Sequence record: PZ386967.1
From: a phage
DNA: 64,000 nt
Direction: 5' to 3' (one strand)
Shown here: positions 15,612 through 62,819 of the stretch, in pieces
Position numbering within the stretch: the stretch's first letter is position 1
Layout: every line of letters starts with the position of its first letter
The notes under the pieces: model-generated
Databases searched by the model: none
What the model was told of the DNA's origin: nothing
The model's input: only the letters and a program-made list of their open reading frames with translations
Position numbers and translations under genes: made by a program

Positions 15612-15639
15612 TTCAATAAAGCGGGTCATAGGGTATAAT
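15612..15639 (+). promoter_or_regulatory. TTCAAT-box / TATAAT promoter with -10 in hairpin loop (TCATAG-GGTATAATT-CTATGA)
   Basis: TTCAAT 15612-15617, 16-nt spacer, TATAAT 15634-15639; upstream of 15672. Confidence 0.45.
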
Positions 15640-16022: not shown

Positions 16023-16337
16023 ATGTCTGTAGAACAAATCGGTTTTTATGTACTACCTTCTGATCCTGAATCCCGTCGCAAGCTGATAGGTGCGATTGAA
16101 AACTGTCGTGCCGCCCAGGTCCGCATCAAGTCGGAACAGACTTTCATTACTGAGACTCTGGCCGAGCTGGCGAAAGAGACGGGCATCAAGGCCAGCGACC
16201 TGCGCAAGGTTGTATCCGACCGCGCCAATGGAACTTACCATAAGACGATCGAAACGAGCGAGAAATATCAAGACTTGTACGAGTCTCTATTCCCGAACGC
16301 CAAGCCCGATCGAGATCCGAATGCCAGTGGCGAATAA
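16023..16337 (+). CDS. hypothetical protein
   Basis: 104-aa ORF. Confidence 0.35.
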   Translation: MSVEQIGFYVLPSDPESRRKLIGAIENCRAAQVRIKSEQTFITETLAELAKETGIKASDLRKVVSDRANGTYHKTIETSEKYQDLYESLFPNAKPDRDPNASGE

Positions 16338-17983: not shown

Positions 17984-18160
17984 CATGCGCAAGTATTTCA
18001 ACTGGCTGTTGGCAAGCCCCTGAGCACCGAAATCCGTTGTCTGATAGATGCGATCGATGTTGAAATGGAATGGCGAGCGCCGGATTAATCGCACAAAGGC
18101 TCAGGCCGAAATTAAAATCGTGAAGAAGTCCACAAGGCTCTGGGTTTCATAACAAATAAT

Positions 18161-18186
18161 TCAATAAACTATTCACCCATATAATA
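18161..18186 (+). promoter_or_regulatory. TTCAAT-box / TATAAT promoter upstream of 18214
   Basis: AATTCAATAAAC, 14-nt spacer, TATAAT; GAAGGAA SD before ATG at 18214. Confidence 0.45.
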
Positions 18187-47480: not shown

Positions 47481-47526
47481 CACGAAAAAGGGATAGAGCA
47501 ATAATACCCTATCCCCTTTTATTGAA
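47481..47526 (-). terminator. terminator hairpin fused to a TTCAAT-box / TATTAT promoter (terminator-promoter unit)
   Basis: GGGATAG...CTATCCC stem followed (minus) by TTTTTCG; minus TTCAAT at 47526-47521 and TATTAT within the loop. Confidence 0.45.
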
Positions 47527-50101: not shown

Positions 50102-50141
50102 CAAAAAGAAAGGGGAACGGGCTAATATTAACCCATTCCCC
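50102..50141 (-). terminator. terminator hairpin with TTCAAT-box promoter elements
   Basis: GGGGAACGGG / CCCATTCCCC stem, minus-strand TTTCTTTTTG after it; TTCAATAAA box upstream on minus strand. Confidence 0.45.
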
Positions 50142-50167
50142 TTTATTGAAGAACGCAATCCGCAGTC

Positions 50168-54526: not shown

Positions 54527-54553
54527 CTGTTTGTCAAAGGGTTAACAGGGGGA

Positions 54554-54579
54554 ATTATATCCCCCTTTGGTTTATTGAA
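54554..54579 (-). promoter_or_regulatory. TTCAAT-box / TATAAT promoter with -10 in loop of GGGGGA/TCCCCC hairpin
   Basis: Minus TTCAAT 54579-54574, 14-nt spacer, TATAAT 54559-54554; immediately downstream of DNA polymerase stop. Confidence 0.4.
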
Positions 54580-57579
54580 TCAACCTTTCTTCTTTTGCAT
54601 CATGGCAAGAAGGTTCACACGGCGCTTGTGCGACCAGCCGACCACGTCAAGGATGGACTGAATCGGGTCAATGAAGGACTTCTCAAAGGCCGCCTGATAA
54701 TCCACCCATTTGCCCAGACCAAGCTCCTCAGGGAAGAACTCAGGATATGCGAAGTAATTCTGGCCGAATGGGTTGCCTGGCTTCAACAACACCATCTGTA
54801 CCTTATCACCCGACTCGATCATCGGTAGACCCAGATCTTCGTTCTTCTCAACCAGACGGTTGTAGCCCACACACGCCTTGGCAGCAAAATGAGCACCAGA
54901 GATGAACGATCCGTCAGCAGCCACACACTTCTCTATGTCGGACACGCCGGAAGCCTTGGCGATATCGTCTACAGAGAGTTTCATGTACTCCTCTTTGTAC
55001 TGGGAGATGAGCGCCTGTACTTCCTCTTCAGTGCCGAGTAGGATCTTCTCATAGCACTTGACAAGACGCTCACGACACCATTCCGGCGTGGTGGACTTGC
55101 GGGCTTCCAGACCTTTGAACTTGATCTTCGGCTTCTCGTACTTGATACCCTCACTGTCGTACACGGCCATGGCATACATCTTCTTGGCTCGCCAGACAGC
55201 GGCTGACGCAATGACCTCACGCTCCCATACCATGCGCTGTTCAAATCCGTTCATGGTGTTACACAGAAGCTGTGCCCACTCATTGGTCTTCGGCTGGTAG
55301 TTGTCTTTGATCCATTGGTCGATATTATCAACCATAGCATGATGGTCAGTAACATCAGGCCACAACTGCTTGACAAGACGCTCAATGCAGATGTAGTTGG
55401 AGTCGGTATCACCTGCGATGACGAAGTCCTGGCCTGTTGTACCACACAGCTTGTTCAGATAGTCATCAGTGTAACGCTTGTTCCACTTGTTGATCAGCTG
55501 ACCGGATGTGGTGATGGCTTCGGCAATGTTGAGGTTGAAGTACTCTTTGAACCAGACGTTCGAGATAGCGCCATAACCTGCGTTCATCAAGATCTTCAGA
55601 CCTTGCTGTAGGGTGTCTTGAGCAACGCCCAGATCTTCCCACTTCTTCATCACTTCGGTCAGTGCATCAAGATCAATGTTCTTGTGCTCTTCATACCACT
55701 CTGGGTCATAGTAGCGAGACTTCATGGCAGACTCAAGATGGAAGTCGCCCTTCGACATCTCTTTACACCAGCCAGCCCACTGCTCATACTTCAGACCCTT
55801 GGCCTTCTCTACTTTACGGTCGCTGTAGATACCACGCATGATTTCAGACAGGAACGACATCTTCTCGTTGCTGAAGAATTGAACGTTCGGCGTGAACGAC
55901 ACGTTGTAGCGGCGCAGGGTTTCAAAGTGGAACTCACCCAGGGCAACCAACTCATCAACAACCTGCAGGCGTTCGTCAACCGCACGCAACAGCTTGTCGT
56001 GAAGGGCTTTCATCAACCGACGTTTGTGCATCGGCGTTGCCATGTTATTCATCTGAGCAGCCAGCTCTTCACACATAGCCTCAATAATCTCGCGGCGCTG
56101 GTGTTTGTCGCCAACGATAGTCTCTGGACCGAGGTTGTACTGCTGAATGATGTGAGGATACAGGGAATTCAAATCTTCCGAGAAGACCCAGAAGTAGATT
56201 CCTGGTGTCACATCCATGACGTATGCACCCTCAAAGTCGGTCGGACCATCGTATACACGCTGGATCTTAGGCACTATCCCCTTCTCGTACAGGCGATAGT
56301 AGCACATGGCCAGCCACGGAGCCACAGTTCCCAGACCGTCTTCATAGTTGGACTTGGTGCGGTAGGCCAGGACGAACATCAGCTGGAGCAGGCGCAGCTT
56401 CTGTTCAAGTCGCCATACCAGCTTAACGTCTTTGATACCATATCGGGTGTGTTTGCAGTAGTCGTTGAAGTACAGATCAAAGAGCGACTTGCTCTCACTG
56501 TAGTCCATCTTCTTCTCACCCAGCTCACAATACGCAATCCAGTCAAGAGAGTAGCGTTCACGGGTGGTGTACGTGTGTTTCTTGTAGATCTGCATATAAT
56601 CGAGCATAGGACAGCCCACGAACTGATACGTCGTGATATCGCCCTTCTTATCGCGAATGATACGCTTCTTAATGATACCCCAAGGACTGAGGCGCGACGT
56701 TTCAGCCTCACCCAGAACCTGATTCATGCGCTCAACAAGATACGGGCTATCGAACGTTTCAATGTTCCAGCCTGTCCAGCCGTCGAACTGACGCTCCGAC
56801 CAGAAGTCAAGGAAAGATCGCAGCAGATCTTGTTCGGTGGTGAACTCCTGATAAACAACCTCAAGGCCGCCGATCTCTTTGTCTTCGGTGTCGTATGCGA
56901 ATTTGTTACGATCTTTGGCACAGGGCATACCCCAGACCATGAACTTATTGGTCGCCATATCCTGAAGCTGGATCAGGGTAATGGGGAACGCCGCATTCAT
57001 GTCTTGGGTGATCTTGCCGTTGCTGTCAATGATAGGGAACTGATCAGTGACGTTGTTGCTGATGAAAGAACCAGGGAAGTGCTCACGGACAAAGTCATGG
57101 TTGGCCAGCACTTGTTTATGGAAGCGGCGAATGCGCGCCTCATTCCCTTTGAACGTCTGCTGCTCAATAGTTGGGTGAGGGAATGGACCTTTGGTCATCT
57201 TTCCGTCTTTCCACCCGGCGGAGAATACTTCGATATCGAGGTTAGCAATATGGATGTTGGAGTAATCCGGCTCAATCTTTCCAGGAAAGCTATGGGCGAT
57301 GAACTGGTATGCATAATCGGTCTGCCCATAAATGGCAGCACCCTGGACTTCCTTGTACTCTTCAAGATAGTTGTCAGCGTCACGCATGGAAGGGAACTGC
57401 TTGGCTACCAGGGGTTCATTGAGAAGGCCGACCTTTTCAACATTTGAATAGTCAGCCGTGGGTAAATAGAGAGTGGGTTCGAATTTCTTTTTCAACAGAC
57501 GGCGATTACCCATGTCATCTGCAATTCGAATCAACAGGTCATTGCCCCTGCGGGCAACGTTCGTATAGAAAACGGTCAT
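54580..57579 (-). CDS. 43: DNA polymerase, family B (T4 gp43-like)
   Basis: Exo I NLDIEVF, Exo II NIETFDSPYL, pol motif A DLNSLYP, motif B KILMNAGYG, motif C AGDTDS; GGAG SD; 999 aa. Confidence 0.9.
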   Translation of the reverse strand: MTVFYTNVARRGNDLLIRIADDMGNRRLLKKKFEPTLYLPTADYSNVEKVGLLNEPLVAKQFPSMRDADNYLEEYKEVQGAAIYGQTDYAYQFIAHSFPGKIEPDYSNIHIANLDIEVFSAGWKDGKMTKGPFPHPTIEQQTFKGNEARIRRFHKQVLANHDFVREHFPGSFISNNVTDQFPIIDSNGKITQDMNAAFPITLIQLQDMATNKFMVWGMPCAKDRNKFAYDTEDKEIGGLEVVYQEFTTEQDLLRSFLDFWSERQFDGWTGWNIETFDSPYLVERMNQVLGEAETSRLSPWGIIKKRIIRDKKGDITTYQFVGCPMLDYMQIYKKHTYTTRERYSLDWIAYCELGEKKMDYSESKSLFDLYFNDYCKHTRYGIKDVKLVWRLEQKLRLLQLMFVLAYRTKSNYEDGLGTVAPWLAMCYYRLYEKGIVPKIQRVYDGPTDFEGAYVMDVTPGIYFWVFSEDLNSLYPHIIQQYNLGPETIVGDKHQRREIIEAMCEELAAQMNNMATPMHKRRLMKALHDKLLRAVDERLQVVDELVALGEFHFETLRRYNVSFTPNVQFFSNEKMSFLSEIMRGIYSDRKVEKAKGLKYEQWAGWCKEMSKGDFHLESAMKSRYYDPEWYEEHKNIDLDALTEVMKKWEDLGVAQDTLQQGLKILMNAGYGAISNVWFKEYFNLNIAEAITTSGQLINKWNKRYTDDYLNKLCGTTGQDFVIAGDTDSNYICIERLVKQLWPDVTDHHAMVDNIDQWIKDNYQPKTNEWAQLLCNTMNGFEQRMVWEREVIASAAVWRAKKMYAMAVYDSEGIKYEKPKIKFKGLEARKSTTPEWCRERLVKCYEKILLGTEEEVQALISQYKEEYMKLSVDDIAKASGVSDIEKCVAADGSFISGAHFAAKACVGYNRLVEKNEDLGLPMIESGDKVQMVLLKPGNPFGQNYFAYPEFFPEELGLGKWVDYQAAFEKSFIDPIQSILDVVGWSHKRRVNLLAMMQKKKG

Positions 57580-57658
57580 GTAATTCTCCAGGTTATCCGT
57601 GCCGTTAGCACGTGGGCATATTTAACCATAGAGCCATTCATTGACCAAGGAGTTTATT

Positions 57659-58231
57659 ATGGCAATCCCCCTCGTTGGTATGATCCCAGGGGCGCTCAAG
57701 CAACTCTGGAACCTCGGGACTGATTTGATCCAATATAAGCGGGAAGTTGTACAGGCCAAACACGACGTCAAGCTGGAGGCCATCAAGTCCTCCTCAGATT
57801 GGGAGCTGTCTAAGATTACCGAAGTCGGCGGGTCTTGGAAAGACGAATTCTGGACTATCGTGTTGGCCATACCCGCCATCCTCGTCATGACTGCTCCGGT
57901 TGTGGAACTGATTCTGTTCCCTGGTGAGTATCATAAAGGGGATTTCATCAAAGCAGTAATCGGTGGCCTTCAGGCACTAGATACCGCACCTGAATGGTAT
58001 ACCTATTCGTTATTGACAGCAATTAGTGCATCATTCGGTATCAAAGGCTACAACCACTACAAAAGCAACAGGCGAAAAGCCCAAGCTATGGATGCTCTCA
58101 AGCAATTTGGGGTTCGGGTCGTACAGAAAGATCCCACTGTTGTTACTCAGTCGGGTGCTCCCGATCTTGAGTCTGCTCCCCCAGCTGGGTCTACTGCGAC
58201 CTCTGGTGCGTGGCCTGATCTGAAGAAATAA
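57659..58231 (+). CDS. multi-pass membrane protein (hypothetical; holin-like possibility)
   Basis: ORF track start 57641 is TTG; ATG at 57659 has AAGGAG SD; hydrophobic helices. Confidence 0.4.
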   Translation: MAIPLVGMIPGALKQLWNLGTDLIQYKREVVQAKHDVKLEAIKSSSDWELSKITEVGGSWKDEFWTIVLAIPAILVMTAPVVELILFPGEYHKGDFIKAVIGGLQALDTAPEWYTYSLLTAISASFGIKGYNHYKSNRRKAQAMDALKQFGVRVVQKDPTVVTQSGAPDLESAPPAGSTATSGAWPDLKK

Positions 58232-58235
58232 GTTC

Positions 58236-58263
58236 AAGGGGAGGAAACTCCCCTTTCTTTTGG
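58236..58263 (+). terminator. rho-independent terminator
   Basis: AAGGGGAG-GAAA-CTCCCCTT followed by TCTTTT. Confidence 0.6.
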
Positions 58264-58273
58264 TGTTTAGGGA

Positions 58274-58486
58274 ATGAATGTGGTAAACAAGAGATTGCTC
58301 GTCACCCAAGGCGGGGCGACGATAGTGCGCGGAAGGATCTATGAACAAACACAGCTGGGTGATCACAAGACACGCCTGACTATTAAGGCTCCCGATGGTG
58401 GTTGGCCAACAAAGGTGATTGTCCCAGACGGTCTCATAGAACGAGGGTCGGCGGTGTATAAAGGAGCAGAGTTCAAAATTTATTAA
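58274..58486 (+). CDS. hypothetical protein
   Basis: 70-aa ORF. Confidence 0.3.
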   Translation: MNVVNKRLLVTQGGATIVRGRIYEQTQLGDHKTRLTIKAPDGGWPTKVIVPDGLIERGSAVYKGAEFKIY

Positions 58487-58581
58487 AATATTTATTGAAT
58501 AAAGTTTACTTCTTCAATAACTGGCGTATACTTCTAATTGTAGTACGAACAAACAACAATCTGAAGAGAAGGAAATACATC

Positions 58582-59139
58582 ATGGCAATCGAAATTATCG
58601 CTCAATCCAAATCTGGTAAAACTGTAATGTACGGCACTGAAGAAGGCCGCGCAATCACCACTCTGGGCACAATTGACGGTTCCAACCCAGTGAAAGGCGG
58701 TCGCTACCTGGTTGAATACGGTTCACACCTGCTGATGGTAAGCAAAGTCGATGGTCGTGAAATCATGATTCCCCGCAAAGAGTACTTCGACTCGCGCATT
58801 GAAGCCATGAACTTCTTCCTTTTCCAGGAACGTCACGAACTGTTCGTTGAAGCGAAAGACGCAGGCCTGGACGATGCGACTGCCGAACTGATCGCTGAAG
58901 GTAAAATGACTCTTGAGGCTGCTCTGGGTGACATGGATTGCGATGCTGAAGCCCATTACATCGAATATTCCGCTTATCAGAATGAATGCGAAGACGATCC
59001 TGAAGATGACGGCTTCGACCCTGACCTTCACGGTGGCGAGGATGACAACACTCCTTCCCTGGAAGTGATCATGGCAGGCGGTCAGGCCGCTTGGGAGTGG
59101 CAGAACGAAAAGAACGCCTGGCTGGATTCCCACCTTTAA
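58582..59139 (+). CDS. hypothetical acidic protein
   Basis: ORF track 58495..59139; ATG at 58582 follows AGAAGGAAATACATC; highly acidic C-terminus. Confidence 0.45.
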   Translation: MAIEIIAQSKSGKTVMYGTEEGRAITTLGTIDGSNPVKGGRYLVEYGSHLLMVSKVDGREIMIPRKEYFDSRIEAMNFFLFQERHELFVEAKDAGLDDATAELIAEGKMTLEAALGDMDCDAEAHYIEYSAYQNECEDDPEDDGFDPDLHGGEDDNTPSLEVIMAGGQAAWEWQNEKNAWLDSHL

Positions 59140-59156
59140 TGTGAAGAAATAAAGAA

Positions 59157-59182
59157 AGGGGCTTAACGCCCCTTTTCTTATT
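59157..59182. terminator. bidirectional terminator between convergent genes
   Basis: AGGGGC-TTAA-GCCCCT with T-runs on both strands. Confidence 0.6.
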
Positions 59183-59636
59183 CTTCCCAGAAGTCTTCGT
59201 CGTCCCCGACAGCAGCCAGTTCCGTGTCCAGTTCTTCATCGGTAAACGGTGGCAGCACCCCGTTCTGAATCAGATAATCCATCTCATCATCTTCCAGCTG
59301 CAGGTCGGTGGCAATATACAGCGCTCCGCTGCCCTCTTCGTCCGTCTCGATACTGTACGAAGTGTATGGCACCCCATTCACTGTAATGATGATAGACGTT
59401 GGATCCTTGGGATCTACGTGCGCCTCGAACGGCACACCATCAATCGGTGCATCTTCTAGGAAGGTAGCAAGTGCTACGGCGGCGCGGACAACATCAGTGC
59501 CTTCAACGCCCGCATAGATCTCTTCCGCGCCTGTCTCTTCACGATCAAACAGCTCAATCGTGATACCGTCTTGAACACCAGTCCATACAGGGATGTCATT
59601 GGTGTATTCTGATTCAAACAATTTGGAGGTTGGCAT
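59178..59636 (-). CDS. hypothetical acidic protein
   Basis: 152-aa ORF, Asp/Glu-rich. Confidence 0.4.
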   Translation of the reverse strand: MPTSKLFESEYTNDIPVWTGVQDGITIELFDREETGAEEIYAGVEGTDVVRAAVALATFLEDAPIDGVPFEAHVDPKDPTSIIITVNGVPYTSYSIETDEEGSGALYIATDLQLEDDEMDYLIQNGVLPPFTDEELDTELAAVGDDEDFWEE

Positions 59637-62709: not shown

Positions 62710-62785
62710 TGGCGACGATGGCAGGACTTGAACCTGCGACATACGGTTTAACAGACCGCCGTTCTACCGACTGAACTACATCGTC
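62710..62785 (-). tRNA. tRNA-Asn (anticodon GUU)
   Basis: Acceptor GACGATG/CATCGTC, D-arm GTTC-AGTCGGTA-GAAC, anticodon loop CTGTTAA, T-arm GCAGG-TTCAAGT-CCTGC, discriminator G, CCA. Confidence 0.85.
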
Positions 62786-62794
62786 TTGCAAATC

Positions 62795-62819
62795 ACTATA
62801 CCATATAAAGTTTATTGAA
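62795..62819 (-). promoter_or_regulatory. TTCAAT-box / TATAGT promoter positioned to start transcription just upstream of tRNA-Asn
   Basis: Minus TTCAAT 62819-62814, 13-nt spacer, TATAGT 62800-62795, 9 nt before the mature tRNA 5' end. Confidence 0.45.

Follow-up and report, generated by a model that had tools for sequence, protein, structure and literature searches.

The perfect inverted repeat located upstream of the gene for an acidic protein in this phage DNA is part of a predicted promoter. It probably consists of two separately selected boxes that flank the -35 hexamer of an early-type promoter for host sigma70, the palindromic arrangement being secondary. Host-type early promoters are a common kind, and the feature would be an ordinary one to which conserved accessory boxes are added; it does not represent a new kind of element. 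The positions of its parts, together with those of related sites, are presented in Table 1. The window is the whole stretch of 64 kb of phage DNA that was analysed.

Table 1. Features of the studied locus, related sites in the window and in Shigella phage Ag3, and orthologous promoters (window numbering unless Ag3 is named)
Feature	Position	Strand	Remarks
Upstream 70-aa ORF, phrog_4732	58274-58486	+	Stop codon 58484-58486 abuts the promoter region
A+T-rich UP-element-like tract	58470-58491	+	Overlaps the last codons and stop of the 70-aa ORF
Left arm TTATTGAA, reverse complement of the family box	58492-58499	+	About -47 to -40
Putative -35 hexamer TTTACT	58505-58510	+	Promoter scan; inside the gap of the inverted repeat
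Right arm TTCAATAA, family box	58513-58520	+	About -26 to -19; first half of the 16-nt spacer
Putative -10 hexamer TATACT	58527-58532	+	Promoter scan; 16 nt from the -35
Predicted transcription start	about 58539 (58538-58540)	+	Deduced from the hexamers
Initial transcribed region and unstructured leader (predicted)	58533-58581	+	Ribosome-binding site GAGAAGGAA at 58566-58574
Acidic-protein gene, phrog_4823	58582-59139	+	ATG at 58582; 185 aa, pI 4.2
Bidirectional intrinsic terminator-like hairpin	59154-59176		Directly 3' of the acidic-protein gene
Box-N12 site	18160-18185	+	
Box-N12 sites	47495-47526, 50119-50150, 54548-54579	-	
Related spacing, N11	62790-62819	-	
Related spacing, N14	15612-15639	+	
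TTTACW promoters, upstream box reversed	Ag3 144204, 58435, 79821, 78118		Box 4-6 nt before the -35; 7/8 match at 79821
TTTACW promoters, upstream box direct	Ag3 39645, 31632; window 8409, 16384		Box 1-7 nt before the -35
TTTACW promoters, terminator hairpin adjoining the -35	Ag3 64904, 80198, 50674		
Promoter in the window phage, Agtrevirus and Kuttervirus-like phages			TTATTGAA gap 13 TTCAATAA; TTTACT-16-TATACT
Ortholog, Klebsiella-phage group (L011, L013, L015, L017)			TTATTGAA gap 12 TTCAATAA; TTTACT-16-TATACT
Ortholog, Miltonvirus (L012; Serratia phage 2050H1 = L186)			TTATTGAA gap 12 TTCAATAA; TTTACT, spacer 17; -10 TATAGT in L012, degenerate TACAGG in 2050H1
Ortholog, L176 (65% protein identity)			TTATTGAA gap 15 TTCAATAA; TTTACT-17-TATAGT
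Ortholog, Erwinia phage phiEa2809 (59% identity)			TTATTGAT gap 14 TTCAATAA; TTTACT-17-TAGTAT
Ortholog, L018/L181 (54% protein identity)			Both arms lost; TTTACT-16-TATAAT

Genomic location and neighbouring genes

The DNA belongs to a ViI-like phage of the family Ackermannviridae, of the Agtrevirus type. Over the stretch around the repeat it shares 98% identity with Enterobacter phage fGh-Ecl02 and with Escherichia phage AV101; for Shigella phage Ag3, of the genus Agtrevirus, the value is about 95%. The inverted repeat is held by the intergenic region 58487-58581, which is 95 nt long with an A+T content of 72%, and its location 5' of the start of the acidic-protein gene at 58582 agrees with the preliminary description of this DNA. 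All genes across 57641-59139 are on the plus strand. The nearest minus-strand gene in the leftward direction is that of DNA polymerase, with its start at 57579, about 900 nt away and past two plus-strand genes. The scan for promoters and terminators found a second terminator-like hairpin at 58236-58255, 5' of the 70-aa ORF. Since hairpins are present both there and at 59154-59176, the acidic-protein gene and its intergenic region form a compact one-gene unit.

The proteins encoded on both sides of the repeat match only PHROG families that have no assigned function, and no Pfam or PDB relatives were found for them. The acidic protein contains 40 Asp and Glu residues compared with 14 Lys and Arg residues. 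Its N-terminal half is variable, and the C-terminal half (…NECEDDPEDDGFDPDLHGGEDDNTPxLE…AAWEWQNEKNAWLDS) is nearly invariant. A homolog of the C-terminal domain is encoded by a phage that does not belong to Ackermannviridae, Pantoea phage Nafs113 of the genus Lietduovirus, and the locus in that phage has no boxes. The negative charge of the protein and its likely early expression would be compatible with a role as a DNA mimic or in anti-defence, which is pure speculation. In Ag3 and several relatives two extra small genes, orf229 and orf230, lie between the acidic-protein gene and the terminator. They are missing from the window phage (window 59140-59180 compared with Ag3 142767-143570), and the locus is for this reason a variable region.

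Structure of the inverted repeat

The arms had been described as a perfect inverted repeat with a separation of about 11 nt. This distance is correct for the two 10-mers originally quoted, TTTATTGAAT (58491-58500) and CTTCAATAAC (58512-58521). The perfectly complementary core is shorter and consists of the two 8-mers listed as arms in Table 1, which pair in eight of eight positions with a gap of 13 nt and with their centres 21 bp apart. The bases beside the core, T58491 and C58521 on the outer side and T58500 and C58512 on the inner side, are unpaired. The left arm belongs in addition to an 11-bp self-palindrome, TTATTGAATAA, at 58492-58502.

Taken by itself, the repeat stands out only slightly. 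When the intergenic region was subjected to 20,000 dinucleotide shuffles, 4.8% of these gave an inverted repeat of 8 perfectly matched bp with a gap of 3-25 nt, and the window as a whole contains 65 such repeats, approximately one per kb. The repeat is nevertheless beyond chance, because the word that makes up its arms is over-represented, the arms are kept in diverged orthologs, and the palindrome recurs at a second promoter of Ag3.

It is important to consider the position of the arms with respect to transcription. The repeat was initially assigned to the leader of the acidic-protein gene. It is indeed located 5' of this gene, but both arms are upstream of the predicted transcription start, and the repeat is therefore to be regarded as part of the promoter and not of the transcribed leader.

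The predicted promoter

The left arm ends 5 nt 5' of the -35 hexamer, while the right arm occupies positions 3-10 of the spacer and lies 6 nt 5' of the -10 hexamer. The consensus for early promoters of T4 and PST phages is TTTACW-N17-TAYWAT, according to Comeau 2014 (PMC4122927). The -35 at the studied site conforms to TTTACW, the -10 agrees with TAYWAT in five of six positions, and the spacer of 16 nt is within the range of 17 ± 1 nt. In orthologs and paralogs the -10 hexamer reads TATAAT, TATAGT or TATTAT and is found 16-17 nt from TTTACT. The promoter scan gave 5 hits in 2.3 kb compared with 2.5 expected, which is not significant by itself, and the case for the promoter thus rests on conservation. 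We consider it highly probable that 58505-58532 is a promoter of the sigma70 type resembling the early promoters of T4. An alternative on the plus strand using TTGAAT (58495-58500) as the -35 would have TAACTG as its -10; this pairing is not conserved in distant orthologs and was rejected.

A tract homologous to the A+T-rich DNA at 58470-58491 also precedes the second palindromic promoter of Ag3, and it is absent from the Miltonvirus locus L012, where the upstream gene is replaced. The fold of the leader (58536-58600) has an energy of -3.4 kcal/mol, no better than that of shuffled sequences, and the leader is 93-100% conserved in close orthologs. A search of the literature for transcriptomes or start-site maps of Ackermannviridae found none, and it gave nothing relevant on the 8-mer word.

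Conservation in orthologous loci

Sixteen orthologous loci from IMG/VR were aligned, and further diverged relatives were compared individually. Across genera, the intergenic region with its leader and ribosome-binding site is 93-100% identical to that of the window in 15 of the 16 orthologs, the exception being L012 with 63%. The coding sequences flanking it in the same 15 loci are 54-95% identical. Part of this high intergenic conservation could be due to exchange by recombination among repeated promoter cassettes instead of to selection on the boxes. The more distant loci are of particular value.

Both arms and the -35 persist in five diverged lineages, usually together with the -10. What differs among these lineages is the surrounding DNA, namely the adjacent bases, the leader and even the genes on either side. 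Both arms are exact in L011, L012, L176 and L186, and in phiEa2809 the left arm matches in seven and the right arm in eight of eight positions. The right box is invariant across the orthologs and the 6-8 nt following it vary, while the distance from arm to arm can be 12, 13, 14 or 15 nt. TTTACT is found in every ortholog that possesses a promoter, including L018/L181, where the arms are gone. In L016 a hairpin takes the place where the promoter would be. In the Miltonvirus lineage, to which L012 belongs, another gene lies upstream, and the similarity picks up exactly at TTTATTGAA.

Two features of individual lineages can be mentioned here. The substitution C58512A, present in L006 and L011, is the only one seen between the -35 and the right box and converts TTCTTCAATAA to TTATTCAATAA. 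In L006 the latter and the left 11-mer TTATTGAATAA are exact reverse complements, and owing to this substitution the repeat grows from 8 to 11 bp. Miltonvirus has a hairpin after the right box, with the sequence GTGGGT...ACCCAC in L012 (1941-1985) and TGGGGC...GCCCCA in 2050H1/L186 (about 441-485). One pair of the stem is changed on both sides between these two phages, and the loop contains a -10-like hexamer and a third box, TTATTGAA.

Distribution of the box

The arms were recognised in the preliminary description as the same 8-mer that forms a recurrent promoter-associated box, and the counts agree with this. The window contains 14 copies of TTATTGAA/TTCAATAA where 2.19 are expected, and none of 100 shuffles reached 14. 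The complete genome of Ag3 has 26 copies, 22 of them intergenic when checked against the annotation. The distance between the box and the next good TAnnnT is bimodal, with one class at N12 (nine sites in Ag3 and four in the window) and the other at N6 (three sites in Ag3 and the studied site). The 8-mer TTCAATAA is consequently a conserved, almost purely intergenic regulatory word with two sharply different geometries.

In the N6 sites TTTACT is always located 2 nt 5' of the box. Ag3 has the corresponding module, TTTACTTCTTCAATAA(C)-N5-TATAMT, at 144204, which is the ortholog of the studied site, at 100549 and at 79821. The last of these is the putative early promoter Porf138 in Anany et al. 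2011. A module with one mismatch, TTCAATAT, is found at Ag3 64904, with its box at N7 from the -10 and with a direct box 5' of the terminator hairpin. In a fifth Ag3 promoter (58428) the box begins 1 nt after TTTACT. This is the second palindromic promoter, at Ag3 58428-58450, and it also has a gap of 13 nt: TTTATTGAA-aaagac-TTTACT-c-TTCAATAA, followed by TATTAT at 17 nt. This promoter had been listed as Porf100, with other hexamers. Among its orthologs L143-L161 neither the arms nor the -35 change, in contrast to the freely varying 6-8 nt that separate the box from the -10, and in a distant relative, L162, the arms are swapped to give TTCAATAA-N15-TTATTGAA. In Ag3 and the window together, some TTTACW promoters have the spacer box and others lack it, and the palindrome is not obligatory. 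An exact-word scan of IMG/VR was made with TTTACTTCTTCAATAA; among the matches listed, unrelated contigs predominate.

The N12 geometry consists of TTCAATAA, exactly 12 nt, and then TATAAT, TATTAT or TAATAT. The -35 of these sites is poor and the -10 is often in the loop of a G/C hairpin, as in the three minus-strand sites of the window (47526, 50150, 54579), where the hairpin is G/C-rich and terminator-like. The studied site was also considered as a member of this class (TTCAATAA-N12-TAWWAT) and was rejected: its box is N6 from TATACT, and the hexamer found at N12, TCTAAT, is without A at position 2. A site of the form box-N11-TATAGT (62785-62819, minus strand) is located directly 5' of the gene for tRNA-Asn (62710-62785, minus strand), which is one of four clustered tRNA genes (those for Ser, Tyr, Asn and Met).

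The studied site helps to define a family-wide type of early promoter, TTTACT-16/17-TAYWAT. The word TTCAATAA can serve as a bait sequence for finding a putative binding factor, and the promoters identified are usable for timing experiments. The palindrome by itself is a small detail of one promoter.

Proposed function of the boxes and alternative explanations

From the sequence, its conservation and the T4-type consensus we infer that host sigma70 RNA polymerase would recognise the -35 and -10 hexamers and start transcription at about 58539 early in infection. The A+T-rich DNA upstream probably assists as a UP-like element. The promoter would drive a one-gene unit, that of the acidic protein, ending at the terminator 59154-59176. 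The spacer box is nearly fixed in position, with 2-3 nt separating it from the -35 and 6-7 nt from the -10 that follows, and the upstream box is located 4-6 nt before the -35. Because the box has a G/C pair at its centre and its positions and orientations vary from site to site, a protein site is likelier than a contact with polymerase, and a sequence-specific factor would be the most likely ligand. That a factor does bind at the boxes is proposed tentatively, with somewhat less than even confidence. Bound there, such a protein would compete with polymerase, and it may for this reason be expected to turn the early promoter down. The palindromic look would simply result from the presence of one box in each orientation, the palindrome itself not being the selected feature.

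The geometry of the repeat had suggested the operator of a dimeric regulator. The arms are conserved beyond the needs of sigma70, in agreement with protein binding, but the gap of 12-15 nt, together with an upstream box that differs in orientation or is missing among the paralogs, does not fit a rigid operator. In such an arrangement one dimeric or tetrameric regulator would contact both arms across the -35, and the dyad, with its spacing of about two helical turns, would be functional. Some facts do favour the pair acting jointly. The dyad is perfect (8/8), with centres 21 bp apart and half-sites overlapping the core promoter, and the identical palindrome with its 13-nt gap is found at the second Ag3 promoter. 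The arms are jointly lost in L018 and jointly flipped in L162, with the substitution C58512A of L006 and L011 the symmetry reaches 11 bp (TTATTCAATAA), and the third box of Miltonvirus, just past the -10, produces an array of alternating orientation. However, the two palindromic sites are clearly paralogous and therefore cannot be taken as independent evidence. The changes of the gap, from 12 nt (L011, L012, L186) through 13 and 14 (phiEa2809) to 15 nt (L176), correspond to approximately 100 degrees of helical rotation. In promoters of the same class the upstream box can be direct (Ag3 39645, 31632; window 8409, 16384), there can be a single box (Ag3 78118), or boxes can be missing within 10 nt of the -35 (Ag3 80198, 50674). 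Half-site spacing and orientation are thus not constant, either among the orthologs or among the paralogous promoters, and a regulator bridging the arms is considered unlikely. The arms could also be without function, as inherited parts of a PeSL-like promoter cassette that are kept alike by recombination or gene conversion. The entire intergenic region is better conserved than the genes on both sides, gene replacements stop exactly at the cassette (L012 has a different upstream gene, and in L015 and L017 the downstream gene has a replaced N-terminus), the cassette and a related leader occur at several Ag3 loci, and conserved promoter-terminator cassettes that mediate shuffling are documented for T4-like phages (PMC2839356, PMC4122927). 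The conservation, however, is uneven: in both orthologous series the boxes and hexamers stay while the adjacent bases vary, and the box is also found outside the cassette at a sharply defined N12 from -10 hexamers. Functionless arms are considered a still less likely explanation than the bridging regulator.

Two further explanations are both very improbable. The divergent promoter pair that was offered at the outset as an alternative to the operator did not hold. The left arm, read on the minus strand, does give the exact box TTCAATAA and could in principle belong to a leftward promoter. But this box is followed by ATATTT-TAATAA (N6) and ATATTTTAATAA-ATTTTG (N12), neither providing a usable -10. 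The minus strand has no good TAnnnT at N6 or at N11-14, and the only candidate is TAAATT, matching in four of six positions, at N9, a spacing observed for 2 of 26 boxes in Ag3 and 1 of 14 in the window, compared with 9 and 4 for N12. TTTACT is also missing on the minus strand at this site and no minus-strand gene is nearby; since the genes of the region are all on the plus strand, a leftward transcript would be only antisense to the 70-aa ORF. The arms could instead act in RNA, as a hairpin in read-through transcripts from the upstream ORF that would serve as a processing site, attenuator or terminator, and they are able to pair in RNA. The fold, however, has an energy of only -4.6 kcal/mol (z = -1.3), which is equalled by 23 of 200 shuffles. 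The stem is all A-U with no U-run behind it, the gap changes without compensation, and an Rfam scan of 58100-59300 gave only sub-threshold noise with no family match. Two separately selected boxes around the -35 of an early-type promoter therefore remain our preferred explanation.

Comparison with known systems

An example of operators overlapping the -35 and spacer of a promoter is provided by the phi29 protein p4, whose sites at the early A2b and late A3 promoters are inverted repeats with arms about 15 bp apart. They resemble the studied repeat in that the inverted arms are short and A+T-rich, are placed at a distance of about two helical turns from centre to centre, and overlap the -35 region of an early promoter. 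By analogy, the same class of site could repress early promoters and activate later ones. They differ in that the sites described here are candidates by sequence, with an arm gap of 12-15 nt and an orientation that varies among paralogs.

The T4-like early promoters and PeSL elements, as described in Arbiol 2010 (PMC2839356) and PMC4122927, are similar in several respects. The studied site has the sigma70-type hexamers TTTACW/TAYWAT in common with them. The promoter of this family is likewise repeated many times before small genes without assigned function, the cassette is more conserved than the genes it serves, and gene replacements end at the cassette border. As a repeated conserved motif bordering variable genes, the studied site is comparable with a PeSL. 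The Ag3 paralogs at 64904, 80198 and 50674 have a stem-loop directly before TTTACT, which is G-rich in several. However, no stem-loop adjoins the studied copy on its upstream side, the nearest hairpin (58236-58255) being about 250 nt upstream with an ORF between. The studied site also has the 8-mer on both sides of the -35, while the PeSL consensus, in the text of PMC4122927 available, consists of the hexamers and the stem-loop. The spacer is 16 nt here and 17 nt in PeSL, and the phages belong to Ackermannviridae here and to Tquatrovirinae there.

The MotA box of T4 is located 12 ± 1 bp from the -10 (Hinton 2010, PMC2988021). The 8-mer resembles it elsewhere in the genome of the window phage, where it stands 12 nt (11-14 in the window) before a good -10 with a poor -35, although its sequence differs from TGCTT. 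The studied site itself is not of the MotA-box type, because it has a proper -35 and because 6 nt separate its box from the -10. The 2011 genome papers (PMC3184105) describe ViI-like phages as having neither MotA nor AsiA, with early and middle promoters that could not be identified. It is conceivable, though we think it as doubtful as the bridging regulator, that TTCAATAA is the recognition word of a new transcription factor of ViI-like phages for the switch from early to middle expression. Bound 12 nt 5' of a -10 without a usable -35, the factor would activate with MotA-like geometry, and bound on both sides of the TTTACT -35 (58492-58520) it would shut early promoters off. If this is true, the TTCAATAA factor would be the early-to-middle switch in phages reported without MotA and AsiA.

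Sites of host factors (IHF, FNR/CRP, ArgR, PhoP and others) were compared by eye through their consensuses, and none fits both arms. The search for a cognate regulator in the window gave as its sole lead a 104-aa ORF at 16023-16337 on the plus strand, with a sub-threshold hit to Phage_DsbA (E = 0.074). This Pfam family corresponds to DsbA of T4. The ORF is annotated as a transcriptional regulator in Ag3 and gave no PDB relative. 3' of it (to 16430) are a terminator-like hairpin and then TTCAATAA-c-TTTACT-17-TAATAT, the spacer of which opens with the box-like sequence TTCAAGAAATAA.
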